A stretch of 24,000 nt of DNA, taken from positions 71,400 to 95,399 of the forward strand of contig JAWBQR010000006.1 of NCBI GenBank assembly GCA_038845265.1, in the 5' to 3' direction. The translations under genes and the position numbers were made by a program. Shown here in pieces: positions 3,350 to 23,489 of the stretch (its first letter is position 1; the number at the start of each line of letters is the position of its first letter). Source of the DNA: Nitrososphaerota archaeon. GTDB lineage: Archaea; Thermoproteota; Nitrososphaeria_A; Caldarchaeales; Calditenuaceae. The notes beneath the pieces were generated by a model. It was not told where the DNA came from, made no database searches, and saw only the letters and a program-made list of their open reading frames with translations.

Positions 3350-4204
3350 CTATTTCTTCACTACAATATCCTTCCCTAGTTTCTTCAACTGGTTAATTAT
3401 CTCTGATCGATACGTGCCTGGAACTCCCTTCCAATCAATGACTGCAATATTTGTCTTCTCTAATGTTTTGTCAAATGCCTCTGATAAAATGTTTATTCCG
3501 TGTGGGAATGCATATTTTGGCATCATGTGTCCAAAATCGAATTGATTGTCAAGCGTAAGTTTAGTAAAGAGGGGTGCGTAATGATTTCCACCTATGCCGA
3601 CAGCTGGTCTATTCGACGGGACTGCATTTACAGCCGAAATGCAGGCCTCTGCCACGGCTATCGACGCTTCTCTGCAGGTCAATGCAGAGGGAGGTCCGCC
3701 GAACTCTACGAATATCAATGGAACTGGAGAGTAGGGACCATGGTGCGTGACTTCGAGACTGACTAGCCAGTCTCTTAGTACCACCATCTCGGTCGCTTTT
3801 TCGTAAAGTTTTCTGAAAGCAGAACCTACAGCTCCTGCCATTGTGTATGATAGTTTGTATGGTTCTCCGCCAAGCTTAGCATCTGGGCCCCAATTACCGG
3901 TTGAGTGTACGTGAAGACTTTTAATTCCCATCTCTGACCTATGACTTGAGGCGATTATTATTAATGATGTTTTGAGATTTTCTATTTCATCTATATGCAT
4001 GTAGACATGTTGTGTAGATGTAGTGATTCCTAGGGTTGTTCCGTTGGTTATAATTGGTTCTCTATTCTTTTCTCCACATGTTTCTCTCCAATTAAAATTT
4101 TCTAGCAGCGTTTGTCTGACTAGCATTGACGCGACGTCCTGCTTAGAGAAGAGTATGATTGGACTTAGCTCCTGAGCTGCATGCTCTGTATTTCTTGAAT
4201 TCAT
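3350..4204 (-). CDS. dtdA: D-aminoacyl-tRNA deacylase, archaeal type (DtdA)
   Basis: The 284 aa protein has motifs I recognise from the archaeal DtdA/GEK1 family: HVHSTGNWG...LGG, EVTHHGP, FVEFGG, GIGGNHYAP and FGHMMPKY. Confidence 0.8.
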   Translation of the reverse strand: MNSRNTEHAAQELSPIILFSKQDVASMLVRQTLLENFNWRETCGEKNREPIITNGTTLGITTSTQHVYMHIDEIENLKTSLIIIASSHRSEMGIKSLHVHSTGNWGPDAKLGGEPYKLSYTMAGAVGSAFRKLYEKATEMVVLRDWLVSLEVTHHGPYSPVPLIFVEFGGPPSALTCREASIAVAEACISAVNAVPSNRPAVGIGGNHYAPLFTKLTLDNQFDFGHMMPKYAFPHGINILSEAFDKTLEKTNIAVIDWKGVPGTYRSEIINQLKKLGKDIVVKK

Positions 4205-4274: not shown

Positions 4275-5873
4275 TTGAATCGGATAGTAGATATGACTAT
4301 AACAGCTGAGCTTGTGGAAAAGAAGACGGCAAAGAAGTTAATTACGAAGACTAGGAGTATCTGTCCAGAATGCAATGCTATCCTGCCTGCAGAAATTTTT
4401 GAAGACAATAATAAGATCTACATAAGGAAAAATTGTCCAAAGCACGGTGAGTTTGAGGAGCTTTACTTCGGAGACGCTTCGATTTATCATAAGTTTGCTA
4501 AGTGGCTTCGGGATGGAAAAGGCACCGGGAATCCTAATGTAGAGGTGCCGCGAGTGGCTTGCCCCGCGAACTGCGGACTTTGCAGCGAGCATCTAAGCCA
4601 CACCGCGCTGGCCAACATAGTCGTGACGAACCGTTGTGATCTTCACTGCTGGTACTGCTTCTTCTACGCAGATAAGTCAGGATATGTCTACGAGCCGACC
4701 CTTGAGCAGATAAAAGAGATGGTTCTAAACTTAAGGGCTGAGAGACCTATTCCCGGCAACTCGGTACAAATAACAGGCGGAGAGCCGACACTGAGAGACG
4801 ATCTACCAGAAATCATCAAAATAATCAAGAGTGTAGGAATAGACCACATACAGCTAAACACAAATGGTATAAGGCTATCCAGAGATTTTGAATATTTCAA
4901 GAAATTGAAAGAAGCTGGTGTCAGCAATCTCTACATGAGTTTTGACGGAATCACCCCTAGGACAAATCCGAAAAATCACTGGGAGGTTCCAGCAGTTCTC
5001 GAGAATGCTCGTAGATTAGGTGTAGGTATCGTACTTGTTCCTACAATAATCAAGGGAATTAATGACCACGAGTTGGGCGATATAATTAGGTTTGGCTTTT
5101 CTAACATAGATATAATTCGAGCAGTAAACTTTCAGCCAGTATCTCTTACAGGGAGAATGCCGAAGAAAGAACGGGAAAAGTACAGAATTACTATTCCAGA
5201 TTGTATAGTAAAGATTGAAGAGCAGACTGATGGTATGATTCCGAGAGATGCCTGGTTTCCAGTTCCTGCTTGCATCCCGTTAACAGACTTTATCGAGATG
5301 CTGACCGGAAAACCGACATACATGCTCAGCACCCATTTCGCTTGCGGTGCAGGGACATATGTATTCAAGGACGGGGATAAGATTAAGCCATTAACCGAAT
5401 TTGTTGATGTTGAAGGATTAATAAAATATCTCCAAGACAAGGCAGAAGAAATAGAGATGGGTAGGAATAAGTATTGGGTTGGATTGAAAGTTTTAGCAAA
5501 CATCGGAAAATTCATTAATAGCAAAAAGGAGCCCCAAGGCCTAAATTTAAAGAGAATGATCTTTGACATAATAGTGAAGCATGACTACAAGAGCGTGGGT
5601 GATTGGCATAGACGCAGCCTATTCCTCGGTATGATGCATTTCCAAGACAAATACAATTACGATATTGAAAGAGTATGGAGATGCGAAATACACTACTTAA
5701 CGCCTGACAAAAGAATTATTCCGTTCTGCGCATTTAATGTTCTTCCTGAATGGTATCGGGATCGGCTCCAAGCACAGTATGGCATACCGATAGAAGAATG
5801 GGAGAAAAAGACCGGCAGAAAATTATCAGATGATTTCTATAAAAGAAGACTATTAATAAGTACTACTGGCTAA
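4275..5873 (+). CDS. Radical SAM protein, Tes / GDGT-MAS-like (putative tetraether lipid synthase family)
   Basis: The canonical radical SAM CxxxCxxC motif is present (NRCDLHCWYCFF). The N-terminus has a rubredoxin-like CPEC...CPKHG site followed by CPANCGLCSEH. The 532 aa length matches the MJ0619/Tes type. The radical SAM assignment is firm; the Tes assignment rests on remembered family features. The start is either TTG 4275 (GGGAGG lies 8 nt upstream) or ATG 4293. Confidence 0.7.
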   Translation: MNRIVDMTITAELVEKKTAKKLITKTRSICPECNAILPAEIFEDNNKIYIRKNCPKHGEFEELYFGDASIYHKFAKWLRDGKGTGNPNVEVPRVACPANCGLCSEHLSHTALANIVVTNRCDLHCWYCFFYADKSGYVYEPTLEQIKEMVLNLRAERPIPGNSVQITGGEPTLRDDLPEIIKIIKSVGIDHIQLNTNGIRLSRDFEYFKKLKEAGVSNLYMSFDGITPRTNPKNHWEVPAVLENARRLGVGIVLVPTIIKGINDHELGDIIRFGFSNIDIIRAVNFQPVSLTGRMPKKEREKYRITIPDCIVKIEEQTDGMIPRDAWFPVPACIPLTDFIEMLTGKPTYMLSTHFACGAGTYVFKDGDKIKPLTEFVDVEGLIKYLQDKAEEIEMGRNKYWVGLKVLANIGKFINSKKEPQGLNLKRMIFDIIVKHDYKSVGDWHRRSLFLGMMHFQDKYNYDIERVWRCEIHYLTPDKRIIPFCAFNVLPEWYRDRLQAQYGIPIEEWEKKTGRKLSDDFYKRRLLISTTG

Positions 5874-8611: not shown

Positions 8612-10924
8612 TTAAACTATTTCCAATAATTTAAGAATGAATGCCTGACCAGCTGATATGCATCCGTCATTCGGGGGGAGTCTTTTACTCATTTTGAGGA
8701 TTAAACCGGAGTTTTTTAAGGACGATTCAATTCCTTGAATAATGTACTCATTTACGGCTGCACCACCACTAACATAAACAACATTACTTCCATAATTAAG
8801 TGCTTCTTCTAGTGCTGCATTGCCAAGTAGTTTCCCAATAATTAATTGTGCAGTGTACGCAATATCTTGACTTTTCGTATTATCTATCAGATCGACTAAT
8901 TGACGAATTATCTCCGTCGAAGGAATGATTCCATCCTTGTAGTTAATTAGGTCTGAAGTTAATAGTTTAATTTCTCGCCCATTACTAGCATGTTCTTCAA
9001 GCAAAATTGCTGGTTCACCCTCATATGTACGCTCTTTACATAATTGCAAAAGGACAGAAACGCTATCAAGTACTCGGCCGGTGCTAGACGTTAATTGTCC
9101 CCTTCCAGATTTAGCCAAAGATATACATTGTTGGAACTCTTCGAAGCCGTGGGGAAAATAATGAATTAATCCTCTTCTCTCGAATAATCTTACGATTTCT
9201 TCTTCACTCAATATTTTGCTTAGAATTGATACAAGCATTCTAGCCGGATATTTAGTAGCTAGGTCTCCTCCAGGCATAATTTGATACTCGAGATGAGCTT
9301 TTCTTTCAATTTTTTCAGAATCCCATGTAAGTATCTCGCCTCCCCAGATTGCTCCATCCTCGCCATATCCTGCACCATCAATCGTTATTGCTACAGCTGG
9401 TTCATCAATGTCGTGTAGATTATCAAGCATGGCTGATGCCATATGCGCTTTATGATGCTGAACTTTGATTAGCTCCGATCCATATTTATTACTCCAATTT
9501 TCAGCAAGAAGAGAAGAACTATAAAGAGGATGTAAATCAGAAACTATGATTGCGTCTTTTGGATTGATTTTGTAATAATTACATAACCTATAGAGATATT
9601 TCTCAAGGTCCTTATAACACTCGTATTCATCAACATCGCCGATATATTGTGTAGGAATTATTTTGTTGTCTATCGCTATCGCGCCCGTGCTCTGTAGATC
9701 TGAGCCGAATGCGATGACAGGTCTACTGAATCTTAGATTAGTTTCTATCCATCTAGGCGCATACCCTCTCCCTCTTCTTAAGAATACTGCCTCGCCCCTA
9801 GTAAACCTAATGACTGAGTCATCAACTCTGTTTATTATACGTCTATTATGTACTAGGAAATAGTCTGCCACACTTGTCAACTTCTTTAAATCCTCTTCAC
9901 CAATTATCATGGGATGACCAGTAGGGTTTCCGCTTGTCATTATTGCAAATTTATCCTTAATATTCATCAATAAGAGATAATGAAGCCCCGTATATGGTAT
10001 GAAAACTCCCAAGGTGTTTAGTCCTGGTGCTACTAAAGGAGAAACATTAGCATCAGCAGTCCTAGGCAGAATTAATATCGGTCTCTCATAACTCAGCAGT
10101 AATTTCTCAGCCTTATCATTTACCAAAACAAGTTTTTTTAAAATCTCAAGATTTAATGCCATTATAGCGAAAGGCTGTCTTGGACGATGCTTTCGGAGGC
10201 GTAGCTTTAAGACAACCTCGTCATCAGATGCTAGGCATGCTAAATGGTAGCCTCCAATGCCTTTGACAGCCACGATGCATCCTTCATTTATCAGTTTGGC
10301 GGTTTCAAGAATAGGGTCTCTGACATTTAGCAATTTTAAATCGTTGTCAAGTAGATTTAGTCTCGGCCCACAATATGAACAGCTGATTCCCTCTCCGTGG
10401 AATCGTCTTATATCTGATACATTATTATATTCTTCAATGCAGCTGGGACATAGCGGGAATTCTTTCCAACTAGTGTTATCTCTATCGTAGGGTATACTTT
10501 CAATGATAGAATACCTTGGACCGCACCATGCACATGAATTAAACGCATATGCATATCTCCTATTTTCTTTGTCGAGGATCTCTTTTAGACACCACTCACA
10601 GATACTTATGTCTGGAGGAACTTCAGAAATGAGGAGGGAGTCTGAAGAACTTTTATGAATAGTAAATTCATTGAAGTTGTTTGGTTTCGCGTCATTAATT
10701 ATTATTTTTTCTATCTTTGCTGTCGGAGTTATACCTTTTTCTATGGATTTGATGAAAAGTTCAACTTTTCTGTCTTCACCCTCTACCCAGATCTCGACTT
10801 CTCCTCCACCCAGGTTTTTTACATATCCATTTACTCCTACACTTAATGCGAGACGAGTGATGGCGGGTCTGAATCCTACACCCTGAACAACGCCAGTGAC
10901 AGTTATTCTAACAGCCCTTAGCAT
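8612..10924 (-). CDS. hypF: [NiFe]-hydrogenase maturation carbamoyltransferase HypF
   Basis: The 770 aa protein has an N-terminal acylphosphatase domain (VTGVVQGVGFRP), two CxxC...CxxCGPR zinc-finger pairs, and YrdC-like and Kae1-like C-terminal regions. It overlaps hypE by 7 nt. Confidence 0.95.
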   Translation of the reverse strand: MLRAVRITVTGVVQGVGFRPAITRLALSVGVNGYVKNLGGGEVEIWVEGEDRKVELFIKSIEKGITPTAKIEKIIINDAKPNNFNEFTIHKSSSDSLLISEVPPDISICEWCLKEILDKENRRYAYAFNSCAWCGPRYSIIESIPYDRDNTSWKEFPLCPSCIEEYNNVSDIRRFHGEGISCSYCGPRLNLLDNDLKLLNVRDPILETAKLINEGCIVAVKGIGGYHLACLASDDEVVLKLRLRKHRPRQPFAIMALNLEILKKLVLVNDKAEKLLLSYERPILILPRTADANVSPLVAPGLNTLGVFIPYTGLHYLLLMNIKDKFAIMTSGNPTGHPMIIGEEDLKKLTSVADYFLVHNRRIINRVDDSVIRFTRGEAVFLRRGRGYAPRWIETNLRFSRPVIAFGSDLQSTGAIAIDNKIIPTQYIGDVDEYECYKDLEKYLYRLCNYYKINPKDAIIVSDLHPLYSSSLLAENWSNKYGSELIKVQHHKAHMASAMLDNLHDIDEPAVAITIDGAGYGEDGAIWGGEILTWDSEKIERKAHLEYQIMPGGDLATKYPARMLVSILSKILSEEEIVRLFERRGLIHYFPHGFEEFQQCISLAKSGRGQLTSSTGRVLDSVSVLLQLCKERTYEGEPAILLEEHASNGREIKLLTSDLINYKDGIIPSTEIIRQLVDLIDNTKSQDIAYTAQLIIGKLLGNAALEEALNYGSNVVYVSGGAAVNEYIIQGIESSLKNSGLILKMSKRLPPNDGCISAGQAFILKLLEIV

Positions 10925-11973
10925 ATCCTTGGAACCGGATCACCAATAGGCGGAGGAATGATTCTTTTACCACCAATAGTTGTCTCTAAAATTACACCTT
11001 TAAATGAATCGGTAACGTATCCGATTATACTTGCTTGGCTCCAACCTGAATTCTTAATTGATTCAAGAATTTCTTCGGCCTTATCGTTTATGACACTCAT
11101 TACAACCTTTCCTTCGTTTCCAACCTCAAGTATGTCGATGCCTAACAATTCAGACGCTGCCTTAGCTGCTGAACTTATTGGTAATGCGTCTTCTCTAATG
11201 ACGAATCCGAGCCCTGTATTTTCTGCCCACTCATTTAACAATCCAGCAAGTCCTCCCCTTGTCGGGTCTTTTGCGCAAGTAACGCCGCCGACCTTCAATG
11301 CCTCTCTCATCAATTTATTTAGAGGGGCTACGTCTGATTTTACGTCTGATTTAAAGCCCAATTCTCCACGCGCAGCAAGAATTGCTACTGCATGGTCGCC
11401 GAGGGGGCCATTCAAAATTATCTTATCTCCAGCCCTAATGTTTTTAGTTATAAGCCACATCGAGGAATGGTCATCCCTACTTCTCTTAATTATTTCGTAG
11501 TTTTGCATTAATTCTTGGCCGGGTACCCCTATGCCGGAACAGTTAATCAAGAGTTTATCGACTCGGCCCTTCTCAACTACTTTTGTATCACCAGTAATTA
11601 TTGAGGTTTCTGCCTCAAGAGCTGCCTCCCTCATGCTGTTTAAGATCTTTTCAATATTGGAAATCTCAAACCCCTCTTCGATTATTAAGCCGCAAGATAC
11701 TCCAAGAATTTTTGTTGCTCCTTTAACTGCTAAGTCATTAATTGTTCCGCACACAGCCATCCTACCGATATCGCCTCCTGGAAAGAATAGTGGATATACA
11801 GTGTACGAATCAGTTGTAAATGCTATACCGTTAACAATTGCTGAATCTTCAAGGAGATAGAGAGGTACATCAATATTCCTGGATAAATCACCAAAATATT
11901 TTAAAACATACTTATGAATAAATTGCAGCATATATTTTCCGCCCGCGCCGTGAAGCATTGTAACATTATTCAT
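10918..11973 (-). CDS. hypE: Hydrogenase maturation protein HypE (carbamoyl dehydratase)
   Basis: The protein has a PurM-like fold pattern, an N-terminal HGAGG, and the diagnostic C-terminal PRIC ending in the thiocyanate-carrying Cys. Confidence 0.95.
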   Translation of the reverse strand: MNNVTMLHGAGGKYMLQFIHKYVLKYFGDLSRNIDVPLYLLEDSAIVNGIAFTTDSYTVYPLFFPGGDIGRMAVCGTINDLAVKGATKILGVSCGLIIEEGFEISNIEKILNSMREAALEAETSIITGDTKVVEKGRVDKLLINCSGIGVPGQELMQNYEIIKRSRDDHSSMWLITKNIRAGDKIILNGPLGDHAVAILAARGELGFKSDVKSDVAPLNKLMREALKVGGVTCAKDPTRGGLAGLLNEWAENTGLGFVIREDALPISSAAKAASELLGIDILEVGNEGKVVMSVINDKAEEILESIKNSGWSQASIIGYVTDSFKGVILETTIGGKRIIPPPIGDPVPRIC

Positions 11974-11979
11974 TGTTGA

Positions 11980-12792
11980 TCACTTATTCTTGGGTTTAGA
12001 AATAAACTGTTCAAGCGCCTTAGCAAAACCTTCTGGAAGCTCGATGGACTCCGTTAAAGAGGTATCGGTACATACTCCGACAGTGTAAATATCAGCTGCT
12101 AGCTTATTAGAAGTTTTATTCCAGACAAAATTGCGGAACTTCACATGTTTTCTACCTATTTCTTCAACCCAGACAATTACTTCGATCTCATTGTCCAACC
12201 GGACTGGAGAGAGTATTTTTCCCCCCGTCTCGACTGTCGGTATGAAACGGCCGAATTTATGTATCAGTGTTGAGTATCCAAACCCAACGCTTGCTAATAG
12301 CTCTTGTTGACACCGCTCACAGAACTTGAAATAATTAGTATAATGCATAACCTGTAAATAATCCGTGTCTGAAAGAGATATTTTATATGTCCTTTTGAAA
12401 GCATTGCTAGGAATTTCTAACTTATCTTTTGTATCAACTTCATCATCTTCGTTTATATCTTTACCTACCCCCTCAATGTTTTGGGCATCGAGGCCAAGAC
12501 TTGATAATAATTTTTTAAAATCCGCCATAGCTTTAGAACTCGCTTCCTCAGGGCTAAGCCCCATTTCTCTATAGTTTATTTCTGCTAACTCGGAATACAG
12601 CGCCAAATTTGTCGCTACATCTTTAGGGTCCATTTTTCCAATTATAACTCCTGCGTGAACCATTACAAAATCATTTATATTTACATCGTCTATCGCCAAT
12701 AGAGCTTCCCTGACTACGCCTCCAAAATCTATCTTGGCTATTTTATTTTCATTATCAATTTCTAAAACTTTACCAGGTGCTCCCCAACACAT
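11980..12792 (-). CDS. hypC: HypC (Fe(CN)2CO chaperone) fused to a C-terminal 4HBT/YbgC-like hot-dog thioesterase domain
   Basis: The protein starts MCWGAPGKVLEI (the essential Cys2 HypC signature) and its first ~72 aa look like the HypC OB-fold. Residues 73-130 form an acidic/Ser-rich linker. Residues ~131-250 (YKISLSDTDYLQVMHYTNYFKFCERCQQELL...) resemble acyl-CoA thioesterases of the 4HBT class. The reading frame is a continuous 270 codons. Confidence 0.85.
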   Translation of the reverse strand: MCWGAPGKVLEIDNENKIAKIDFGGVVREALLAIDDVNINDFVMVHAGVIIGKMDPKDVATNLALYSELAEINYREMGLSPEEASSKAMADFKKLLSSLGLDAQNIEGVGKDINEDDEVDTKDKLEIPSNAFKRTYKISLSDTDYLQVMHYTNYFKFCERCQQELLASVGFGYSTLIHKFGRFIPTVETGGKILSPVRLDNEIEVIVWVEEIGRKHVKFRNFVWNKTSNKLAADIYTVGVCTDTSLTESIELPEGFAKALEQFISKPKNK

Positions 12793-12795
12793 ATC

Positions 12796-14022
12796 TTATT
12801 CCCCTTTATTGATTAGTGAATTTTTAATGTCTCCATGTTTTGCCCATACATTACATGTCCCCTCAATCGATACCATGCATGGTCCCCACGGTGTCTCGGG
12901 CGTGCATGATTTCATAAATAGTGGACAATCTGTTGGTTTGGATATTCCGAGCACTACTTCCCCGCATCTACAGTTAGGAGGCAAATCGTACTTCCCGGGC
13001 TCTCCGAAATGCGCATGAGTCATAACATACTCAGAAGGTGAAGCGTCAGGTATACCAAAATACTCAAAGGCATCATAGATCTTCCTGAAATCTTCTCGAA
13101 ACATTAATCCACTTCTCGCTATCATGCCAATCCCCCTCCAGGCGGCGTATGTGGGCTGAAAAACCTCATTCACCATTTTTTTTACATAAGAGTTACCATT
13201 AGGTTTAACTAACCTTTTGTACTCGATTTCTAGTCTTGGTTTTTGGTTATCAATCATTTTAAGAATTGTTGCGATCGCCATTAGTATATCTATTGGCTCA
13301 AATCCCGTAACAACGGTTGGGAGACCGAAGTTTTCAGGAAGAAATCGCCACTCATAACCGCCAATGACGGCCGAGACATGTCCAGGCGCTATGACCCCCA
13401 TTATAGGGAGTAATCCTCTTTCCTTGTACAGCTTTACAGTAAACTTCATCGCTGGCGGAGTGAGACGTACAAGACTCATGAACTTAAGGTTGGTTGGTAC
13501 CTCTCCCTTATAAAAGAAGAAGCCGTAAATAGGTAAAATTGTCTCAAAGCCTATTCCGAGAAATATGCTTTCCTTTTTATGTGTTTTTGCGTCTTTTATG
13601 GCGTCAAAAAATGAATAGACAACTTTGACTTCAGCGCCCAGGGACTTTGCTTCATAAAGAGATCTTGCTGGTGTTTTAGGCCTACTTGAAGGAAGCCTAA
13701 GTGCATCGCCATATGTATAAATAGTATATCCTTCAAGTGCAAGCTTAATAGACATATCTATGTAGTTTGACGGCACTACGCATACTGGGCAGCCTGGACC
13801 GGCTACAAGCTCTATGCTTCGTGGCAATAAGCTCCTCAATCCATAATGCGTTATAGCCCATTCATGCGTACCGCAGAAATGCATTATCTTAATTAATGAA
13901 TTATTTTCGAATTGTTTTTTCATGATTTTCTCTGCATATTTTTTGATTATTCCAATTAATGATGAAGCAAGTTCACGGTTGCTTCGAAATATATCCTGAA
14001 CAGTTCTCAGCTCTGGTTGCAA
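12796..14022 (-). CDS. hypD: Hydrogenase maturation protein HypD
   Basis: Diagnostic motifs are present: FCGTHEW, GPGCPVCV, GFET, PGHVS and a C-terminal Cys cluster (CRCGEV...CPLFMKSC...GPCMVSIEGTC). The start is TTG at 14022, overlapping the protease gene by 16 nt. Confidence 0.95.
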   Translation of the reverse strand: MQPELRTVQDIFRSNRELASSLIGIIKKYAEKIMKKQFENNSLIKIMHFCGTHEWAITHYGLRSLLPRSIELVAGPGCPVCVVPSNYIDMSIKLALEGYTIYTYGDALRLPSSRPKTPARSLYEAKSLGAEVKVVYSFFDAIKDAKTHKKESIFLGIGFETILPIYGFFFYKGEVPTNLKFMSLVRLTPPAMKFTVKLYKERGLLPIMGVIAPGHVSAVIGGYEWRFLPENFGLPTVVTGFEPIDILMAIATILKMIDNQKPRLEIEYKRLVKPNGNSYVKKMVNEVFQPTYAAWRGIGMIARSGLMFREDFRKIYDAFEYFGIPDASPSEYVMTHAHFGEPGKYDLPPNCRCGEVVLGISKPTDCPLFMKSCTPETPWGPCMVSIEGTCNVWAKHGDIKNSLINKGE

Positions 14023-14498
14023 TTAATATGGTCACCTCTTCTAGTAATTTTCATAATGATGTCAAAAACATTCTTTGTAATTGAATCCAATTTTTCGGAA
14101 ATTTCTAGTGAAATATTATCTCCAATTGTATATGGATCTTTTGTTTCAATTGCAATTATATGTATAAAGTTAGGACGAAGTAATTCTAGTGCATGGATAG
14201 CCATCAAGGCTTCAGGAAGTCCTGCATAATGAGGTGAAAACACAGACATGGATTTCATTAAATCCCCATCCAGTTCGTATACGTGTCCTACTGGATGTTT
14301 GTTGCTTCTTATACCATCAACTATTATGACCATGTCGTAGCCGTGAATGTAATCTAGTAATGAGAGTCCTGTTTTTTCTAAGATATGCGTATCAATACCC
14401 ATTTTTTCTAGTTCTCCCATCAGACGTTTCCCTACTTCTATTCCTACGGCATCATCCCTGTAAATAGGATTACCGAGGAATAGAACGACTACTTTCAC
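14007..14498 (-). CDS. [NiFe]-hydrogenase maturation endopeptidase (HycI/FrhD/HybD family)
   Basis: The N-terminal VVLFLGNPIYRDDAVG motif, the IIVDG and SPHYAGL motifs, the 163 aa length and the position directly downstream of the large subunit all fit this family. Confidence 0.85.
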   Translation of the reverse strand: MKVVVLFLGNPIYRDDAVGIEVGKRLMGELEKMGIDTHILEKTGLSLLDYIHGYDMVIIVDGIRSNKHPVGHVYELDGDLMKSMSVFSPHYAGLPEALMAIHALELLRPNFIHIIAIETKDPYTIGDNISLEISEKLDSITKNVFDIIMKITRRGDHINCNQS

Positions 14499-14504
14499 AG
14501 CCGA

Positions 14505-15965
14505 TTATAAATTATGCCGAACTACATTAAGTAGTTTGCCATTCATGTCATAAATGTATACAGCTAGTGGCATATTCCCCGGCAGTGAATGAGTTCCACA
14601 CGCATGGCATGGGTCATAGGCCCTAAACGCCATCTCTATCATGTTTAATATACCTTCATTTATCTGGCCTTGTCTGATCAATTGTTTTGCTGCCTTATCA
14701 ATTGATAAGGCAATTCTTGCAGCATTGTTTTGTGTAGCGACTATGAGATTAGCCTGTTTAACTACTCCACGTTCATCAGTTATGTAGTGATGTATTAATG
14801 TGCCTCGAGGCGCCTCAACGACTCCCATACCTTCACTTGGTTGATCTTTAGGAATATTTCTTATATTTTGATCAGTTATATCAGGATCATTTGCTAATTC
14901 CTGAATTCTTTCTGCTGCATAAATCATCTCTATCACCCTTGCCCAGTGGTTTGCGAGAGTGTGATGAACAGGTCTACCAATCATCGAAATCATTTCCTCA
15001 AATGCTGATTGTGCCTCATGTGTAGGTAATGATTGAGAAACATTAAGTCTCGCAAGGGGTGCTACACTATATATCCCGCTATCTTCTCCATCAATGAATC
15101 CTTTCCAACCTATTTTCTTTAGGAAAGTGAATTTAATATATGTCCATGGCTCAACATGTTCTCCAACATATTCTAAGTACTGATGTACATCAAATTTAGC
15201 AAATTCATTACCCTTTGGGTCGACTACTCTTATTTTTCCATCATAGAAGTTGAGCTGGTTCTTCTCATCAACTAAACCCATATAATAGGTTCTATGTGTA
15301 TATGCATCGCTAGTTATAAGATTGAAGTATTGGTCATTACTTAATACTAGAGTTTTAAACAGCTTCATGGTAAATTTTGCAAATTCTACAGACTCTTCTG
15401 CTACTTGTTTTATTTTTTCTAACTCATTATTTTTTATTGGTCTTGAGACTCCGCCAGGCACTCCTGATACTGGATGGATTGTTTTACCACCCAGCATTAG
15501 ATTTATTTCTCTAAGTTTTTTACGAATTGATATAACTCTTAGCACATTTTCTTTACCAACCTTGTTAATTACTCCCAGTATGTTTCTTTCTTCTTTAGGT
15601 GAAGTCGGTCCAACTATGAAATCTGGTCCTCCTAATATATAGACGTGGAGAGCGTGGTCTTCAAGCATGAATATGTTATACATAAGTTCTCTAATCTTTC
15701 TGGCAGTCAGTGTTGGAGGGCAATTATAGAGGTCATCAAGCGTTTTCGTAGAAGCCATGTGATGCGCCATAGGGCAGACACCGCATATCCTAGCAGTGAT
15801 TTGCGGCATGTCCTCGACTGCCCTTCCCTCGGCAAATTTTTCAAATCCCCTGAGTTCTGGTATTTGGATGTATGCTCGGTCCACGTTTCCAACATCATTT
15901 ATAAATATGATTATCTTCCCATGTCCTTCAAGCCTAGTTATTGGGTCAATTACTATTTCTCTCAC
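14505..15965 (-). CDS. mvhA: [NiFe]-hydrogenase large subunit, MvhA-like (group 3c-like)
   Basis: RLEGHG and the proximal Ni-binding RICGVCPMAH motif are present, as is the C-terminal DPCHACGTH followed by a 27-residue extension (SLPGNMPL...RHNL) expected to be removed by the endopeptidase. The genomic context includes MvhG, MvhD and HdrA-like genes. Confidence 0.93.
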   Translation of the reverse strand: MREIVIDPITRLEGHGKIIIFINDVGNVDRAYIQIPELRGFEKFAEGRAVEDMPQITARICGVCPMAHHMASTKTLDDLYNCPPTLTARKIRELMYNIFMLEDHALHVYILGGPDFIVGPTSPKEERNILGVINKVGKENVLRVISIRKKLREINLMLGGKTIHPVSGVPGGVSRPIKNNELEKIKQVAEESVEFAKFTMKLFKTLVLSNDQYFNLITSDAYTHRTYYMGLVDEKNQLNFYDGKIRVVDPKGNEFAKFDVHQYLEYVGEHVEPWTYIKFTFLKKIGWKGFIDGEDSGIYSVAPLARLNVSQSLPTHEAQSAFEEMISMIGRPVHHTLANHWARVIEMIYAAERIQELANDPDITDQNIRNIPKDQPSEGMGVVEAPRGTLIHHYITDERGVVKQANLIVATQNNAARIALSIDKAAKQLIRQGQINEGILNMIEMAFRAYDPCHACGTHSLPGNMPLAVYIYDMNGKLLNVVRHNL

Positions 15966-16948
15966 TTTCTCACACTCCTGAGAATATTTCTTAAGCCTGA
16001 TTTTGGAAGCGAGTATTTGTAAATTAAACCTAAAATGTCCGGGAGCTTTGAGATTTCTTTTCTTATTTGTTCTTCATCTTCGAGATCTAGTATACTGCCA
16101 AGGAAGGATATCGCCTTTCCTCCATAATCATGAATATTGTCAAGTGGTCCGAAGCAGCCTGTGCAGGGCATGTTAGCTTTAATGCAGAGCGCACTGCATC
16201 CTCCTCTCGTCACAGGACCTAAGCAGGGCAATCCTTGAACTAGGAGACACTGATTTGGGTCAGGCACGAAGTGGACTACTCGTTTAAATTCTTTAATTAA
16301 TACATTCTCTGGCTTTGTATCATTAAGCGGACATTCATTGCATAACGATTTGTTGCTGGCTCCTATCACTGAGCCCTTGCTGGGAAGCTTTCCTGATAAT
16401 AATATATTGATCGCTTCCCAAGTAACTTCAGGTGTTGGTGGACATCCAGGCACGTAATAATCTACGGTAATAACCTCGTCAAGAGGCTTGAGGCTAGGTA
16501 AAAATTCTGGTAAATCAATTTTAGCACCATTGATTTCTACAGGGCGAGTCTGGGAAGGTATTATTTTCTCAGGATTAACAGTAGTGGGCGTAGTTATATA
16601 GGCCCTTTCAAGTATCTCCTCTCGTCTATAATTGTTTGCTAGTCCAGGAATTCCTCCCCAACATGCACATGCTCCATATGCCACGACGAACATAGATTTT
16701 CTCCTCAGCAATTTTACTATCTTCTCATGTTCGGATAAACGAACACCGCCATTAATGAAGCTCACAGTTATTGAATCATCTGGCATAGCCTCTATGTCCG
16801 GGATCTTGAAGTCCATGGCGACAGGCCAAAACACGATATCGACAAGATTAACCACATCTAAAATTTTCTCACCTAAGTCTACTACTGCTTCTTCGCATCC
16901 ACCACAGCTTGCGCACCAATAAAATGCAACTTTTGGACGTATACTCAT
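15962..16948 (-). CDS. mvhG: [NiFe]-hydrogenase small subunit, MvhG-like; no Tat signal (cytoplasmic)
   Basis: The N-terminal [14 protein letters not shown] and [11 protein letters not shown] proximal-cluster motifs are present, with further Cys clusters ([19 protein letters not shown]...CTGC). The protein begins directly at MSIRPKVAF, with no twin-arginine leader. Confidence 0.9.
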
Positions 16949-17382
16949 ACGGCTTCGACCTCTAATTTGACTGGGCCTAATCTTTTCAGATCTCTAACCA
17001 TTTCATTTACTACTTGTACCCACTTATTTGCTTCCGATGCTGATATCCATTCAAGTCTGAATCGCTCCTTTTCGATTCCTAATTCCTCTAACAATCTTCG
17101 GAATAAGCTATAACGTCTAAGTGCCTTTATGTTTCCACTAATGTAGTGACAATCAGAAGGTGGATGGCAACCGGCTACGATTACACCATCAGCACCCTGC
17201 TCAAATGCCGCGAGGACGAATTGTGGATCAATACGTCCAGAACACATGACTCTGATAACTCTCACATTTGGCGGATACTGCATCCTACTAGTTCCGGCTA
17301 GGTCAACAGCAGCATAGGTACACCAATTACAGGCGAATACAACAATTTTAGGCTCGTAGTCATTAGAGCTCATTTTAGTCAC
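16945..17382 (-). CDS. mvhD: MvhD / FlpD-family hydrogenase iron-sulfur (delta) subunit
   Basis: [18 protein letters not shown]...VMCSGRIDP...[18 protein letters not shown] is the hallmark of the MvhD family. The start is GTG 17382 or ATG 17373. Confidence 0.9.
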
Positions 17383-19315
17383 CTTTTATTAATGCCAAAA
17401 CTTGAGCTAGTACCTGTCTGTCCTTAAAGCTATACTGCTGCATCGCTCCTGATGGACATGCTGCAGAACAAGTACCGCAACCCATGCATAATGCTCTCTC
17501 GACGTAGGCAATCATTCTTCCATTAATTTCTTTGAGTGAAATAGCCTTATATGGACATAAGCCCACGCAGATCCTACAACCACTACACAATTCATCATTT
17601 ACGGTGGCTACAAATGGTTCAGTCTTGACTTTTCCTTTTGATAAGAGAGCAGCCGCCTTAGAAGCAGCGGCACTTCCAGTTCTAATACTCTCAATAATGT
17701 TTTTTGGCCCAGTAACTGACCCTGCTAGAAAGATGCCTTGGGTAGGAGCTTCTACTGGATTAAGCTTGAGATGCGCTTCTCTGAGAAATCCATCTGTGCC
17801 ACAACTAGCTCTGGTAACTGCAAGTAGGTCTATAAGATCCCTTCTCGGAATCATACCTACCGATAAAACGATTAAATCTACCGGTATGCTTATTTCTTCC
17901 TGAATAGTGACTTCATATACGTCAATTAAAATTCCTTCAGGGCCAATGTCCACTACTGGGGGTTCCTCAAATTTGATGAACTTAATGAGATGCTCTCCGG
18001 CCCTCTCATAAAGACTTTCATCATTTCCATAAGTATTGATGTCTTGGTAAAGAATAAACACATCTGTTTCAGGATACTTTTCTTTTATTTTGATCGCATT
18101 TATCAATGTAGATGTGCAGCACATCCTTGAACAATAACTCTTAGAATTGGGCGTTGTATTACGCGAGCCTACGCATAATATAAAAGCGATTCTTTTAGGT
18201 ATCGTTCCTCCTATTATTAATTTTCCCTGAGTTGGGCCGTCTTTATCTAAAAGTCTCTCTAGCTGGAATAGCGTAATTACATTATTATGAAGACCATATG
18301 CATATTCGCCCTTTGGTGGAATGTATGGATCATATCCAGTAGCTATGATGAGTGCTCCAACATTTAAATCCAACAATTTAGGTTGCTCAGATAAATCGAT
18401 TGCATTAAACCTACATGCTTTTACGCACTCGCCACACTTGATGCAGACTCTTTGATCTATAACATACATGAGTGGATAGGCTGTCTTAAATGGATAATAG
18501 ATGGCTTTTCTTCTTGATAATCCATATTGATACTCATCTGACAATTCGATTGGGCACTCAACTTCACATTCTCCGCACAAAATGCATTTTTCATTTATAT
18601 ACCGCGGATTTATTCTGATTTTTGCTTTAAAGTTGCCTGGAAAACCACCAAACTCGATTAGTTCAGAATTTGTGAATACGTGGATCTTTCTATTCTCTGC
18701 AATTTTGTTAATTAAATTATTTACTACATCGGCACCTCTTCTATCACTTTCAAGCCATCCGGTTAGGGCGGCTCTCCCCCCAAGCGTGGGGCTTTTCTCA
18801 ACTAAATAAACTTCAAATCCATATTCCGCAAGGTCAATTGCAGCCCTCATTCCAGCGACGCCACCGCCAAGCACCAAAACGGCGGGATATGTCTGAAACT
18901 CTGTCTCTTCCAATGGTTCTAGGAGAGCGGCCTTGGCAACAGCCATCCTAATTAAGTCCATAGCCTTCTTAGTGGCTGCTTCTCTATCAGAATGAGCCCA
19001 TGAGCAATGCTCCCTGATATTTGCCATTTCTAATAAGTACTTATTCAGTCCTGCACTTTCTATGGCGGACCGGAATGTAGGTTCATGCATTGAGGGTGAG
19101 CAAGCAGCAACTACAACTCTATTCAAATTATGCTTCTTTATCTCTTCCTTTATCAATTCTTGGCCTACAGTTGAGCACATAAACACATAGTCGTGACTCA
19201 CTATAACATTCGGAAGTTTCTTTGCATATTCACTGACTGTTTTAACATCTACTTTTGAGGCTATGTTATGTCCACAATGACAGATAAATACTCCAACCCT
19301 AGGCTCAATACTCAT
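17375..19315 (-). CDS. Full-length HdrA-family flavoprotein (HdrA/QmoB-like, without a fused MvhD domain)
   Basis: The N-terminal domain is HdrA-type ([18 protein letters not shown]) and the FAD dinucleotide fold is [18 protein letters not shown]. An inserted ferredoxin ([23 protein letters not shown]), the HdrA signature CVGSRN...YCSRMCC and a C-terminal 2x[4Fe-4S] ferredoxin ([24 protein letters not shown]) are also present. Confidence 0.85.
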
Positions 19316-20673
19316 GATTTATCACCTTTTATGGTAATTATCTTTTCAATCATATGCCTCTTTGCAATTGTAGAGGCCTTTATCGCGGCTGAACTAGCCA
19401 TCGTTACAGAGTCTGGAATGTCCCTTGCTTCAGCTGCGCCCCCAATGACAAAAATTCCCTCCATAGAAGTTGAGACAGTGTCAAGATAGGGATCCATAAG
19501 CTGTATAAATCCTCCTTTATCTGTCTTCAGTGGTATGGAAGAAATTTTATTAGGCCTAACTGCAACTGATAGAACCACCATATCAAATTCTTCTTTCTTC
19601 ATGTAGCTATGCAGGGTATCCTCATAGAATAATATTAAATTCTTATTGTGCGGGTTCTCAATGATCTTGACTACTTTACCTCTGACATATTTTACTCCAT
19701 ACTCCGTCATGGCTCTTTTGAAGAATTCATAGAATCCCTTACCAAATGCCCTCATATCCATAAAATAAATCGTAGTATCCACGTCTGGAATGTGTTCTTT
19801 TGCTAGAATCGCTTGCTTCGTAGCGGCCATGCAGCAAAACGCAGAACAGTAATGATTGAATCTTATATCTCTTGAACCAACGCATTGAATCCAAGCTATC
19901 TTTTTTGGATGCTTTCCATCTGACCTTCTAATTAACTCTCCATTTGTTGGTCCTGTTGATGATACTAATCTCTCAAACTCTAGATGAGTGTAAACATTCT
20001 GATATTTACCGTAACCATACTCAGGAATGTTACGTGCATCATATAGGTCTAGACCAGTAGCGACTATTATCGCTGCGACATTAATCTCAATGATTTCTGA
20101 CTGTTGATTATAGTCAATAGCCTTTGTTGGGCAAACCTTCTCACATGCACCACATAACGGCTTTCCTTTTGCTTTTTCTTTAAGGTCAGGAGGTGGGTTT
20201 AGTCTCAGACATTGTGTAGGATCAATCAGTGCTTTTCGCGGGACTGCCTGAGGATATTCAATGTATATTGCCTTTCTTTGGCTGAGATTTGCGTTATACA
20301 GATCTGAGACTTTAACCGGGCATCGCTCGATACATGTCCCGCATCCTGTACATTTATTCCAATCAACATATCTTGGCTTCTTTAAAATCCTAACTGTAAA
20401 ATCCCCTATCTTTCCTTTTACTTCCTGCACCTCTGAATACGTCAGAAGCTTTACATTACTATATCTCAGAAGCGCTGCCATCTTTGGAGTCAATATGCAT
20501 GACGCACAGTCAAGTGTTGGAAACGTCTTGTCAAGTTGTGCCATCTTTCCACCAATACTCGGATTCTTTTCTACTAGATAGACTTCAACTCCGTGTTCGG
20601 CGAGGTCAAGACTGGCCTGAATTCCCGCAATACCGCCACCTATTACGAGTACTGGTTTACTCAAGTATCTCAC
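19312..20673 (-). CDS. Short HdrA-family flavoprotein (QmoA-like)
   Basis: The protein starts directly with the FAD fold (VLVIGGGIAGIQASLDLA) and GGKMAQLDKTFPTLDCASCILTPKM. It has an inserted ferredoxin (CTGCGTCIERCP, CGACEKVCP) and CVGSRD...YCSAFCC. It lacks the N-terminal Cys domain and the C-terminal ferredoxin of the 646 aa paralogue. The start is GTG. Confidence 0.8.
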   Translation of the reverse strand: MRYLSKPVLVIGGGIAGIQASLDLAEHGVEVYLVEKNPSIGGKMAQLDKTFPTLDCASCILTPKMAALLRYSNVKLLTYSEVQEVKGKIGDFTVRILKKPRYVDWNKCTGCGTCIERCPVKVSDLYNANLSQRKAIYIEYPQAVPRKALIDPTQCLRLNPPPDLKEKAKGKPLCGACEKVCPTKAIDYNQQSEIIEINVAAIIVATGLDLYDARNIPEYGYGKYQNVYTHLEFERLVSSTGPTNGELIRRSDGKHPKKIAWIQCVGSRDIRFNHYCSAFCCMAATKQAILAKEHIPDVDTTIYFMDMRAFGKGFYEFFKRAMTEYGVKYVRGKVVKIIENPHNKNLILFYEDTLHSYMKKEEFDMVVLSVAVRPNKISSIPLKTDKGGFIQLMDPYLDTVSTSMEGIFVIGGAAEARDIPDSVTMASSAAIKASTIAKRHMIEKIITIKGDKS

Positions 20674-21787
20674 CTCTTATGAACCCTTTTCTCGCGCTTA
20701 CGTAATTAGCGATTGACTTGTATAACCAGTGGTTATGTTTGCCGAACGGTACCTCGAGTAAAAGGAAGGGAAAGACGACACCAATATGTAAGACATAAAT
20801 TACATAAGACATGAAATAAACATTTAGATCGTTAAAGATATTCATGAGTAGGCCTGTTAAGCCTATTACGAAGACATACCCTAAACTAATCCAATCAGTG
20901 GAGTGTCTAAACATCTTATAATACCAATGAATCTTTGGAGAATTACTAAGACGCTTAACAAATGGTAAGCCTGCACCGACTACGAGTAGCAGAGCAGCTA
21001 CGTATCTACTCGCCATAATCACGTATGCGAATGGATAGATAGAGTAAATTGCGGGATAGATCAAGTAGATAAGGACTAGCAATATGTATAGAATTATCCC
21101 TGCTAGTATGAACATATGTTCAAGAATCCTTATTCTTTTATCGGAAATTTTTAATGCGTCATTCTCACTCTTTATCCAAAATCTTAATACTCTCTTAAAT
21201 GATTCGAAGAAACTGATGACATAATCTTTGCCGCCACCCACAAATTTGTACATTCTATATCCATTGCTTGCTAATAATCCAAGGCTAAGCACTGTTAAAA
21301 GTATTCCTATTGGTAGTATTTCAGGCAAGTTTACAAAAACGTTTTTTGATAAATAATTCATTATTGAGGAATAGAATATCGATAATAATCCAACGATAGA
21401 GATCATTGATAGAATAAAAGTGACCAAGAGTTTTTTCTTTAATGAGGAGAAGTACCACCACTTTGATATTCCTGTCCAGTCGTAAAGCGTGCTTTGGTAT
21501 CTTCTTAATGATGCTAGTATCTCACATGGATTAGCATCTCGTGGACATGCTTCAATACAGTCTCCGTGAACATTACACAGCCAAGGCACTAGGTCTTTCT
21601 GAAGCTTATCCACAAATCCCAGTTGCGCATACTTAATTACTCTTCTAAAACTAATAAACATGCCTTCAGCTATAGCACAGGTTGCAGTGCAGGAACCACA
21701 TTGATAGCATTTGAAGATGCCTTTGCCTCCTAGTTCTATTATTTCCTTGTTGATATCTTTAAAAGATATATAAGGAGTTGCCTTCAT
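20657..21787 (-). CDS. QmoC-like membrane protein 2: HdrC-like FeS domain fused to a NarI/HdrE-like cytochrome-b domain
   Basis: The N-terminus has CYQCGSCTATC and a variant CNVHGDCIEACP motif, followed by about 6 hydrophobic helices. The conserved His residues (EHMF, RHSTDW, LHIG) and the terminal VPFGKHNH resemble the PF(S/T)(K/R)LxH end of NarI-family di-heme proteins. The 376 aa length is similar to QmoC. Confidence 0.7.
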   Translation of the reverse strand: MKATPYISFKDINKEIIELGGKGIFKCYQCGSCTATCAIAEGMFISFRRVIKYAQLGFVDKLQKDLVPWLCNVHGDCIEACPRDANPCEILASLRRYQSTLYDWTGISKWWYFSSLKKKLLVTFILSMISIVGLLSIFYSSIMNYLSKNVFVNLPEILPIGILLTVLSLGLLASNGYRMYKFVGGGKDYVISFFESFKRVLRFWIKSENDALKISDKRIRILEHMFILAGIILYILLVLIYLIYPAIYSIYPFAYVIMASRYVAALLLVVGAGLPFVKRLSNSPKIHWYYKMFRHSTDWISLGYVFVIGLTGLLMNIFNDLNVYFMSYVIYVLHIGVVFPFLLLEVPFGKHNHWLYKSIANYVSARKGFIRGEILE

Positions 21788-22950
21788 ATTTTTGTCACTT
21801 CAGTTATTTTGGATTGACGAATTTCGTTAATTTTAGAGAAATATAAAGCGATGGGGCGGTAGGCAATATGTGCCCACTTCGTGAACGGTACACCTAATAT
21901 GAGAAATGGCACAACGACCATTAGATGGAGTGAGAAAACTACGTATGTACCTATTGGCCATCCAATACTTCTAAATATGCCTGTTAACAATCCTGTAATG
22001 GATATCAGTACTAATAGAATGATGAACATCCAATCAGTTGGATGTGAATATTTCCAGAGTGGTTTATTCTTTTTAATGCGCCCGCTAATTACTGTAAGTC
22101 CTCCATAGGCAATTGTAAAGACCGAAAATAGTCCAATTATGCTAAGGGGTGAAACGAATAAAAATGGATCATTTGTATGCGTAAACACCAAAAGCAGTTC
22201 GAACAGTACTAGAGAGGCTACATAGCCATAAAATATTAATAAATGAACTAACCAGTATTTTCTATCATTGCAATAGCTGAATAGCTTCTGTGTAAGGAAA
22301 TTAGGAATAAGCGTCTTAAAGAATTCTCTAACATAAATCAACAAAGGCAGTTTTACTTTAAGGTTTGAAGTTAGTCGATACATCCGGTAAATATTTATGA
22401 GAAGTATTGATGCGAGAACCGCAAAAATGAGCCGTCCAGCATTTTCCACGATTTCTATTGGAGCAAAGACAGCTAAAGCCACCTGATCTAGTATTATCGG
22501 TCCATGAAACAGGTAAATAATAATGCCTGTTAAAATTGATAATGATAAGATTGCAAAGAGCAATATCTTATTGTTAAGATATAGTAGTTTTGAGATTCCG
22601 GTCCAGTCATAAACCATGGTTAGATATCTTCTAAGCGTCATCATAAGCTCGCTTGGATTTGCATCACGTGGACAAGAATTACTGCACTCTCCGCAGGCAT
22701 AACATAACCATGGTGTCAGGTCGCTTGATATTTTTTTATCTAGTCCAAGCTGAGCATATTTAATCGATCTTCTAAAACTAATTAAGTAATCCTCAGATAT
22801 TGGACAAATCGCAGTACATGACCCGCATTGATAGCACTTCATAATTCCATCGCCGCCTAATCTAATTATTACGTCGGTAATCTTTTCTTCTTTTTGAATC
22901 GGCATTAATAGTGTTGCCACAGGCTGCCTTATTCCCATGCTACTATTCAA
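21784..22950 (-). CDS. QmoC-like membrane protein 1: HdrC-like FeS domain fused to a NarI/HdrE-like cytochrome-b domain
   Basis: The N-terminus has CYQCGSCTAICP and CYACGECSNSCP motifs, followed by about 6 hydrophobic helices. The His residues (VHLL, SHPTDW, LHLM) and VPFTKWAH match the NarI-family pattern. It is a paralogue of the downstream gene, with a 4-nt overlap. The start is TTG 22950 or ATG 22938. Confidence 0.7.
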   Translation of the reverse strand: MNSSMGIRQPVATLLMPIQKEEKITDVIIRLGGDGIMKCYQCGSCTAICPISEDYLISFRRSIKYAQLGLDKKISSDLTPWLCYACGECSNSCPRDANPSELMMTLRRYLTMVYDWTGISKLLYLNNKILLFAILSLSILTGIIIYLFHGPIILDQVALAVFAPIEIVENAGRLIFAVLASILLINIYRMYRLTSNLKVKLPLLIYVREFFKTLIPNFLTQKLFSYCNDRKYWLVHLLIFYGYVASLVLFELLLVFTHTNDPFLFVSPLSIIGLFSVFTIAYGGLTVISGRIKKNKPLWKYSHPTDWMFIILLVLISITGLLTGIFRSIGWPIGTYVVFSLHLMVVVPFLILGVPFTKWAHIAYRPIALYFSKINEIRQSKITEVTKI

Positions 22951-23078: not shown

Positions 23079-23081
23079 TTG

Positions 23082-23489
23082 ATGCATGAATTCACCGTAG
23101 CAATGGGGATTGTAGATTCATTAAAAGAATTATATTTAAACAAGGGTTTCAAGATTAATAGTTTCAAGATAGTTATCGGTGAATTATCGATGTTTAATCC
23201 AAGCATAATTAATGATCTTGTTAGAGAATTAATTAAGGAAACAGAATTAGAAAACACTAAATTTAAAGTAATTATTGAGGAAGCAAAAATCAAATGTGAA
23301 TCATGCAATGAAACTCACAGCTTTAATGAACTCTCAAAACAGTTAAGTGAGGAAGAAAAAGAGATGATTCATTTTATTCCTGAATTAATTTCATCATATA
23401 TGAAGTGTCCATCATGTAGTAGTAGAGATCTAAAGATTATGAGTGGGAGGGGAGTAAAGGTGATTGACATTGCGTTGCAAAAACGATAA
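23082..23489 (+). CDS. hypA: Hydrogenase nickel-insertion protein HypA
   Basis: The N-terminal MHE nickel-binding motif requires the ATG at 23082; the track start at 23079 is an upstream TTG. The zinc site is CESC...CPSC. The ~135 aa length is typical. Confidence 0.9.
   Translation: MHEFTVAMGIVDSLKELYLNKGFKINSFKIVIGELSMFNPSIINDLVRELIKETELENTKFKVIIEEAKIKCESCNETHSFNELSKQLSEEEKEMIHFIPELISSYMKCPSCSSRDLKIMSGRGVKVIDIALQKR

Follow-up and report, generated by a model that had tools for sequence, protein, structure and literature searches.

A HypC protein with a predicted YbgC/4HBT-class hot-dog thioesterase domain in an archaeal hydrogenase maturation operon

The window analyzed here is a stretch of 24,000 nucleotides (nt) from a Nitrososphaerota archaeon of the Calditenuaceae (GCA_038845265.1, JAWBQR010000006.1, positions 71,400-95,399). 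It contains a minus-strand operon in which two QmoC/HdrC-like genes, two HdrA-like genes, mvhD, the small and large hydrogenase subunit genes and a maturation protease gene are followed by hypD, a hypC fusion gene, hypE and hypF (Table 1). The fusion gene encodes a HypC to which a predicted hot-dog thioesterase domain of the YbgC/4HBT class is joined at the C-terminus. The original prediction had described a single open reading frame (ORF) of 270 codons between hypD and hypE, starting with MCWGAPGKV and thus with Cys2, and this is what lies there. The frame is uninterrupted and separated by 3 nt from the stop of hypD and by 6 nt from the start of hypE, and a Shine-Dalgarno-like GGGG is located about 8 nt 5' of its ATG. 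The interpretation of this ORF as HypC fused to a 4HBT/YbgC-like hot-dog domain within the hyp operon was borne out as well by Pfam matches above cut-off, by Foldseek and by the hyp neighbors. It is almost certain that the architecture is real and that the gene is the HypC of its hyp cluster.

With Cys2 and His46 both present, the HypC part is complete, and it is encoded in the same operon directly after hypD. The Pfam model HupF_HypC matches residues 1-65 with 64 bits (cut-off 28.5) and is covered over its full profile, and the part aligns end to end with the HypC of T. kodakarensis (2Z1C/3VYR), which has 75 amino acids (aa). Cys2 (codon at 12787-12789) is universal in the fusion family once two mis-called starts (TTG and GTG) are corrected. 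His46, which we take to be the counterpart of His51 in E. coli HypC, is invariant across the family. The fusion thus shares with the HypC/HybG/HupF proteins (T. kodakarensis 2Z1C/3VYR, E. coli 2OT2) the Met-Cys start, the conserved His and the OB-fold with its C-terminal helix, as well as being encoded together with hypD, hypE and hypF as apparently the sole HypC of its cluster. However, known members consist of 75-100 aa and stand alone, whereas the fusion adds a helix, a tether and an enzyme-type domain of 138 residues. It also falls just under the cut-off of the NCBIfam model TIGR00074 (hypC_hupF; 42.8 bits against 48, a marginal miss), and in the fusion loci hypD precedes hypC, while the known order is hypC followed by hypD.

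An AlphaFold2 single-chain model built on a 33-sequence alignment of the family reached a mean predicted local distance difference test score (pLDDT) of 84. It places strands within residues 5-54, helices at 56-76 and 81-98, and an alpha+beta domain at 131-265, in which the hot-dog elements are a central helix (151-168) and strands between 186 and 240. The region connecting the two parts had been proposed to be a linker of 58 aa (residues 73-130). This holds for residues 100-127 or so, which are acidic and disordered, but the remainder includes the end of the HypC helix (to residue 76) and the conserved helix 81-98, and A84, A88, L99 and G100 are near-invariant in this part of the family alignment. 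In the tether, the pLDDT drops below 50 at residues 110-121, and its length varies among homologs with the frame always kept. No in-frame Met from which a separate thioesterase could start is found in the linker. One 216-aa homolog from a single Logan contig (P0043) lacks both the extra helix and the acidic linker, and its hot-dog domain starts about 10 residues after the HypC helix. This indicates that a long tether is not indispensable.

The C-terminal part passes the Pfam cut-offs for 4HBT (residues 147-230; 33.5 bits, cut-off 20.6) and 4HBT_2 (residues 140-260; 31.7 bits, cut-off 25.5). When the fold was checked with Foldseek against the PDB, the top matches were exclusively of the YbgC/4HBT class, namely 5V10 from P. 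aeruginosa, E. coli YbgC (1S5U/5KL9/5T06), Aquifex AQ1494 (2EGI), 1Z54 and the DHNA-CoA thioesterases 4K00 and 6FDG. The E-values were 1e-12 to 1e-10, the root-mean-square deviations 1.2-2.4 Å and the target template modelling (TM) scores 0.76-0.94 (0.86-0.94 without 6FDG), i.e., up to 0.94 to YbgC-type thioesterases, in agreement with the hot-dog fold expected for this part. Sequence and profile searches match the same thioesterase PDB chains. The more specific NCBIfam models are not reached, neither YbgC/FadM (TIGR00051; 50 bits, cut-off 68.7) nor the tol-pal YbgC equivalog (TIGR02799; 46.6 bits, cut-off 141). As tol-pal genes are also absent and the host is an archaeon, we regard the domain as a member of the superfamily and class and not as a YbgC orthologue. 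With the class it shares the fold and the D-T-D motif holding the catalytic Asp, and it has kept E-R in the central helix as well as the strands with P-x-R-x-D and V-C-x-D. It differs in being archaeal, essentially never free-standing and outside any tol-pal or menaquinone context.

The Asp of the DTD motif was correctly anticipated, and the structures indicate which of the two it is. When aligned by profile, S141-D142-T143-D144 coincides with the EDTD of YbgC. Where wild-type E. coli YbgC has EDTD, its substrate-trapped entries 5T06/5T07 have EDTA, and this D-to-A exchange at the second Asp identifies D144 as the catalytic-Asp position, on the loop ahead of the central helix, corresponding to D18 in E. 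coli YbgC, D17 in the Pseudomonas 4HBT (Ps4HBT) and D16 in the S. aureus DHNA-CoA thioesterase (SaDHNA). D144 is invariant in 33/33 family sequences. The active site of SaDHNA consists of Asp16 and His23 of one monomer together with Glu31 and Tyr45 of its neighbor (PMC8918352). With an offset of +128 these residues map to D144, Y151, E159 and Y173, and all four are invariant in the family, although the mapping of Tyr45 to Y173 assumes that there is no gap and is the least certain of the four. Position 151 is His23 in SaDHNA and Tyr24 in Ps4HBT.

Compared with the nearest free relatives, the fusion clade retains the core residues D142, T143, D144, H150, N153, Y154, E159 and R160, whereas the surroundings of the catalytic Asp have changed. 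The A-A-G that follows it in the relatives has become an invariant Y145-L146-Q147. Other changes specific to the clade are F to C158, R to T186 and D to N201, and H178 and W208, which are variable in the relatives, have been gained and are invariant. Such remodelling beside the catalytic Asp argues for a specialized substrate. C241, D243, R198 and D200 were also considered as a possible clade-specific metal site. This was rejected, as these residues are common to ordinary YbgC-type enzymes; only C158, which takes the place of a Phe in relatives, is clade-specific.

The fusion is found far beyond this assembly. The identical 270-aa protein is present on 14 independent contigs from NCBI metagenome-assembled genomes (MAGs), JGI and Logan. 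A homology search recovered 43 full-length proteins with both Pfam domains at 99% down to 42% identity, and a domain-only profile search added four further fusions, giving about 50 cluster representatives altogether. The survey of homologs suggested with the original prediction therefore shows the same architecture in some 50 representatives, and the suspected frameshift or missed stop in the linker does not exist, as the exact sequence recurs on the 14 contigs and the homologs all have one open frame. In a scan of GTDB with one genome for each of 185,579 species, 12 carried the fusion, all of them archaeal MAGs: seven Hadarchaeota/Hadesarchaea, one Nitrososphaeria, one Geoarchaeota, one Desulfurococcales, one Hodarchaeaceae and one unclassified archaeon closely related to that of the window. 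All known members come from uncultured MAGs. Mean pairwise identity is 67% in the thioesterase domain, 54% in the OB-fold, 41% in the helices and 20% in the linker, so that the thioesterase is the most conserved part of the fusion. The fusion is an ancient architecture that is maintained by purifying selection and limited to a few anaerobic archaeal lineages.

Relatives of the thioesterase outside the fusion are almost absent. An exhaustive HMMER search with a thioesterase-only profile, run over 1.84 billion cluster representatives, gave five matches at E<=1e-30: four fusion clusters (210-244 bits) and P0055, which scores 157 bits; the next free-standing thioesterases, of about 140 aa, score at most 116 bits. 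Other long matches to the profile were examined as potential independent HypC fusions and rejected, as their partners are response-regulator, cytidylate-kinase or hemerythrin domains or tandem thioesterases. A 152-aa protein that resembled a natural split thioesterase (P0044) was likewise discarded, since hypE and hypF come next after its gene, which begins 23 nt away from the end of a contig; the protein is a fusion cut short. P0055 (153 aa; L018/L019, 75-536) is the only free-standing member of the clade, and upstream of it all three frames contain stops. The protein retains LSDTDYL, LIHEY and VCTD, but C158 and H150 are lost and the clade-specific residues are relaxed. The gene lies convergent to a TenA/THI-4 gene on contigs of 0.9-1.2 kb with no hyp genes in view. 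We therefore rejected it as a hyp-linked stand-alone version, and it supports neither presence nor absence of a functional link. Judged by these searches, the thioesterase clade appears to exist essentially only as a HypC fusion. The best conserved half being the thioesterase (67% against 54% identity), the kept active site and the near absence of free relatives make a functionally neutral fusion, which the original prediction had allowed for, unlikely.

The genomic context also links the fusion to hydrogenase maturation. HypD is encoded directly 5' of the fusion in 13/13 loci with upstream DNA, and in 16/16 when L015-L017 are included, while hypE, hypF, hypA and a hydrogenase adjoin it in only some loci. 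When hidden Markov models of both halves were run over the window and L001-L014, neither a further HypC nor a further thioesterase turned up within ±10 kb. Neither did a second hypC or a free thioesterase appear in L015-L017, which were judged from gene calls and precomputed Pfam matches only. Six complete or nearly complete hyp clusters (the window, L003, L004, L015, L016 and L017) have no HypC other than the fusion, and L016 and L017 also carry hypA and a Mrp/MinD-type HypB analogue. In the window, the CGTH (CG-x-H), GPGCPVC, GFET and PGHVS motifs are all visible in the HypD translation, and judged by such motifs and the PRIC end, HypD and HypE look canonical. Current annotations name one half of the protein each, as NCBI calls it a HypC-family chaperone and JGI calls its relatives acyl-CoA thioester hydrolases.

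Table 1. Features of the window, with positions numbered from its first nucleotide.
Feature	Position	Strand	Basis and remarks
hypC::thioesterase fusion gene	11980..12792	-	270 codons + TGA stop, ATG start; ORF list and sequence
HypC domain, residues 1-72	12577..12792	-	OB-fold 1-55 and canonical C-terminal helix; alignment with 2Z1C/3VYR, AlphaFold2
Extra helix, residues 81-98	12499..12552	-	AlphaFold2, pLDDT ~88; past the end of the alignment with the 75-aa HypC; not present in stand-alone HypC structures
Disordered acidic tether, residues ~100-127 (roughly 27 residues)	12412..12495	-	Low pLDDT, variable length
Predicted YbgC/4HBT-class hot-dog thioesterase domain, residues 128-265	11998..12411	-	Foldseek, sequence and profile matches
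S141-D142-T143-D144 motif	12361..12372	-	Reverse complement TCA GAC ACG GAT; D144 codon 12361-12363
hypD	12796..14022	-	Pfam HypD, 392 bits; scaffold partner, directly upstream of fusion
hypE	10918..11973	-	Pfam AIRS/AIRS_C; C-terminus ...VPRIC
hypF	8612..10924	-	Pfam Acylphosphatase, zf-HYPF, Sua5/YrdC, HypF_C, HypF_C_2
Maturation protease	14007-14498	-	Pfam HycI
[NiFe] large subunit	14505-15965	-	Pfam NiFeSe_Hases
[NiFe] small subunit	15962-16948	-	Pfam Oxidored_q6
MvhD	16945-17382	-	Pfam FlpD
Protease to MvhD	14007..17382	-	Operon shared with hypD, fusion, hypE and hypF
HdrA-like and HdrC/QmoC-like genes	17375-22950	-	5' of the hydrogenase genes
hypA	23079..23489	+	Pfam HypA, 71 bits
118-aa ORF	23502-23858	-	No Pfam or NCBIfam match
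Zn/Mn-type ABC importer	35-2389	+	AztC/ZnuA-like binding protein, ATPase, ABC-3 permease
DTD2-type D-aminoacyl-tRNA deacylase, archaeal	3350-4204	-	
Tes radical-SAM gene	4275-5873	+	532 aa, N-terminal zinc ribbon

Both domains belong to known families, while their fusion is undescribed in the searched literature, as no description of a HypC-thioesterase or HypC-hot-dog fusion was found in full-text searches. What is predicted from sequence and modelling is a hot-dog domain of the YbgC/4HBT class that keeps its catalytic residues and is tethered to the C-terminus of HypC by the additional helix plus a flexible, acidic linker. Its possible function bears on how the CO ligand of the [NiFe] cofactor is made. 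In aerobes, HypX converts N10-formyl-tetrahydrofolate (N10-formyl-THF) via formyl-CoA to CO, while a 2025 review calls the anaerobic source of CO the "most pressing" open question, with formyl-CoA as a candidate, and mentions no fusion of this kind (PMC12134894). Ideas on this source include formyl-CoA, an acetyl or formyl group on Cys2 of HypC, and CO2 delivered via a carrier protein. Native mass spectrometry of E. coli HypC revealed Cys2-dependent adducts of +28 Da (formyl-sized) and +26 Da (possibly acetyl-derived), which the authors proposed as CO precursors (PMC10847431). These adducts add plausibility to the idea that thioester chemistry is connected to ligand synthesis.

Based on the conserved active site and the hyp context, we tentatively suggest that the hot-dog domain handles thioesters at the HypC-HypD scaffold, a reading that we hold as possible and not as established. 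In such a mechanism, the domain would pair with a second copy and thereby render HypC dimeric, because active sites of the class lie at the dimer interface. A dimeric HypC would fit the known (HypCD)2-HypE2 stoichiometry. The domain would bind a thioester of the acyl-CoA type, and D144 would attack or cleave it within reach of Cys2 of HypC or the iron site of HypD. The likeliest purpose would be the processing of a small acyl or formyl unit of the type found on the N-terminal Cys of E. coli HypC. The unit might be passed from CoA to the scaffold, or CoA or the carboxylate might be released after transfer. For the former there is a precedent in the class, since covalent anhydride (acyl-Asp) catalysis has been proposed for its prototype, the Pseudomonas 4HBT (PMC8918352), and an acyl-Asp intermediate would permit transfer to a thiol in place of water.

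A bolder version, which we consider unlikely, is that the hot-dog domain is the anaerobic CO-ligand enzyme itself, using D144 on formyl-CoA or a small acyl-CoA and placing the acyl group on Cys2 or decarbonylating it in place. If so, the Fe-CO bond would form directly on the HypC-HypD scaffold, the fusion would be a functional counterpart of HypX in strict anaerobes, and an acyl-CoA thioester would be the long-sought metabolic precursor of the carbonyl ligand. The comparison with HypX is instructive, since there too a domain that handles CoA thioesters has been recruited to [NiFe]-cofactor maturation, and its formyl-CoA route shows that a thioester can supply CO (PMC12134894). However, the two share no kinship in sequence or fold: HypX combines a formyltransferase with a crotonase-type domain and is a separate protein of aerobes, whereas the hot-dog domain is fused to HypC in anaerobes and its production of CO would be purely hypothetical. 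No Pfam or NCBIfam match to HypX-type domains (N10-formyl-THF transferase, crotonase-like decarbonylase) was found on the fusion or its neighbors in the window. In HcgF, which acts in the biosynthesis of [Fe]-hydrogenase's FeGP cofactor, a protein-bound thioester likewise precedes a carbon ligand, the acyl-iron (PMC9314073), but HcgF belongs to an unrelated family and another hydrogenase class, and the analogy is conceptual only.

Several observations weigh against thioester handling, and in particular against a role in making CO. Hydrolysis of formyl- or acetyl-CoA alone would yield formate or acetate and not CO. The Gly of the D-x-x-G-x-V loop is lost and the Arg of the nearest relatives is T186, so canonical acyl-CoA binding is not guaranteed. 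The domain also misses the YbgC/FadM cut-off. The AlphaFold2 model has a predicted TM score of 0.57 and gives the inter-domain arrangement without confidence. A plain HypC is enough in other thermophilic archaea, e.g., T. kodakarensis. Moreover, with 12 carriers among the species scanned the fusion is rare and, whatever its role, does not represent a general or universal anaerobic route.

A rival reading is that the role of the domain is architectural only, with the hot-dog as a dimerization or docking module that joins two HypC-HypD units or docks HypE or the large subunit, and no thioester chemistry involved. Enzymes of the class do assemble into dimers or tetramers via the sheet and helix of the hot-dog (PMC8918352), one HypE dimer is bound by two HypCD heterodimers (PMC12134894), and both the replaced pocket-loop Gly and conserved Arg and the score below the YbgC/FadM cut-off are in line with this reading. 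We nevertheless consider this improbable, as D144, Y151, E159 and Y173 together with D142, T143, N153 and Y154 are invariant across phyla, and selection on an interface alone is not expected to keep a buried catalytic carboxylate. In addition, the domain is better conserved than HypC itself, and in P0055, the sole free-standing offshoot, it is precisely the clade-specific residues that have relaxed. A hydrolytic editing or protective role, in which the domain clears unwanted acyl adducts off reactive cysteines in HypC, HypD or HypE, or breaks down acyl-CoA in the vicinity, so that scaffold thiols stay free in hot, acyl-CoA-rich cells, would require no new chemistry of a thioesterase. Record titles suggest that the MAGs come from hot springs and the deep subsurface, and in E. 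coli the Cys2-dependent +26 Da adduct of HypC is abundant even without other Hyp proteins (PMC10847431), which shows that metabolites modify the N-terminal Cys in vivo. On chemical grounds, however, the S-to-N acyl shift at an N-terminal Cys is intramolecular, very fast and irreversible, and its amide product is no substrate for a thioesterase; proofreading of S-acyl cysteines therefore looks chemically weaker to us. A tethered enzyme would not meaningfully deplete a freely diffusing metabolite either, plain HypC suffices in other hyperthermophiles (2Z1C), and the strongly remodelled, invariant pocket suggests one specific substrate and not broad clean-up. We consider this role, too, to be doubtful.

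The remaining explanation is that a housekeeping thioesterase was joined to hypC by accident or that two genes were merged by a sequencing error. Neighboring genes do fuse, and the divided naming by NCBI and JGI could be seen in this light. An artefact of assembly or frameshift was nonetheless rejected, given the same ORF on 14 independent contigs and the same open frame in about 50 representatives from several archaeal phyla, with linker indels in frame. In P0044, the only apparent split, the gene is cut off by the end of its contig, the clade has no free-standing copy apart from one degenerate orphan, P0055, and the linker offers no in-frame Met. This explanation is effectively refuted and retains only a marginal probability. 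Thioester handling at the scaffold continues to be our working interpretation. The retention of the fusion across archaeal phyla constitutes independent "Rosetta-stone" evidence, which suggests CoA-thioester chemistry at the HypC scaffold, and the protein offers a single polypeptide on which the idea of a thioester-derived CO ligand can be tested. If the domain turned out to be structural or protective only, the fusion would nonetheless be the first case of a HypC extended by an enzyme-type domain, and as a natural dimeric HypC it might be useful for structural work on (HypCD)2-HypE2.

The hydrogenase encoded in the same operon is assigned to the Vhu/Mvh type of [NiFe]-hydrogenases by sequence, with VhuA and VhuG as best NCBIfam matches, both below cut-off. 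Residues 435-460 of the large subunit match the VhuU selenoprotein-subunit model, fused to VhuA-like sequence. As a whole, the protein has VhuA as its best match with 377 bits, far under the cut-off of 800, which makes it a divergent group-3c-like enzyme. In the region 5' of the hydrogenase genes, two HdrA-like flavoproteins of 646 and 453 aa are encoded along with a tandem pair of paralogues (about 380 aa each) that have HdrC-like ferredoxin domains and QmoC as their best NCBIfam match (143-183 bits, cut-off 300). No HdrB was seen in this region, and such an Mvh-HdrA-QmoC-like electron-transfer module is unusual.

Next after hypA lies the 118-aa ORF. A hypB of either the GTPase or the Mrp/MinD type is not visible in the window, while in L016 and L017 the Mrp/MinD-type ATPase follows directly after hypA. 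In the Hadarchaeum locus L015, a gene for a NikR-like regulator adjoins hypF, and a Prismane gene (hybrid-cluster/carbon monoxide dehydrogenase family) is found some 4 kb downstream of the hyp genes (L015 positions 1616-2023 and 10592-12244 for these side features).

A radical S-adenosylmethionine (SAM) gene recurs a few kb from the hypD-fusion pair in two divergent lineages and was considered as a maturation partner. It is found in the window, in L002 (5914-7509), L003 (16960-18567), L004 (16962-18533) and L012 (7109-8704), and in the last of these it is divergent to hypD at a distance of about 100 bp. The candidate was rejected because the protein is the tetraether (glycerol dialkyl glycerol tetraether, GDGT) lipid synthase Tes, with 726 bits against an NCBIfam cut-off of 450. 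Its proximity to hypD and the fusion is probably synteny and not a maturation link. The ABC importer and the DTD2-type gene at the other end of the window are housekeeping genes, and both are syntenic with L003 and L004.

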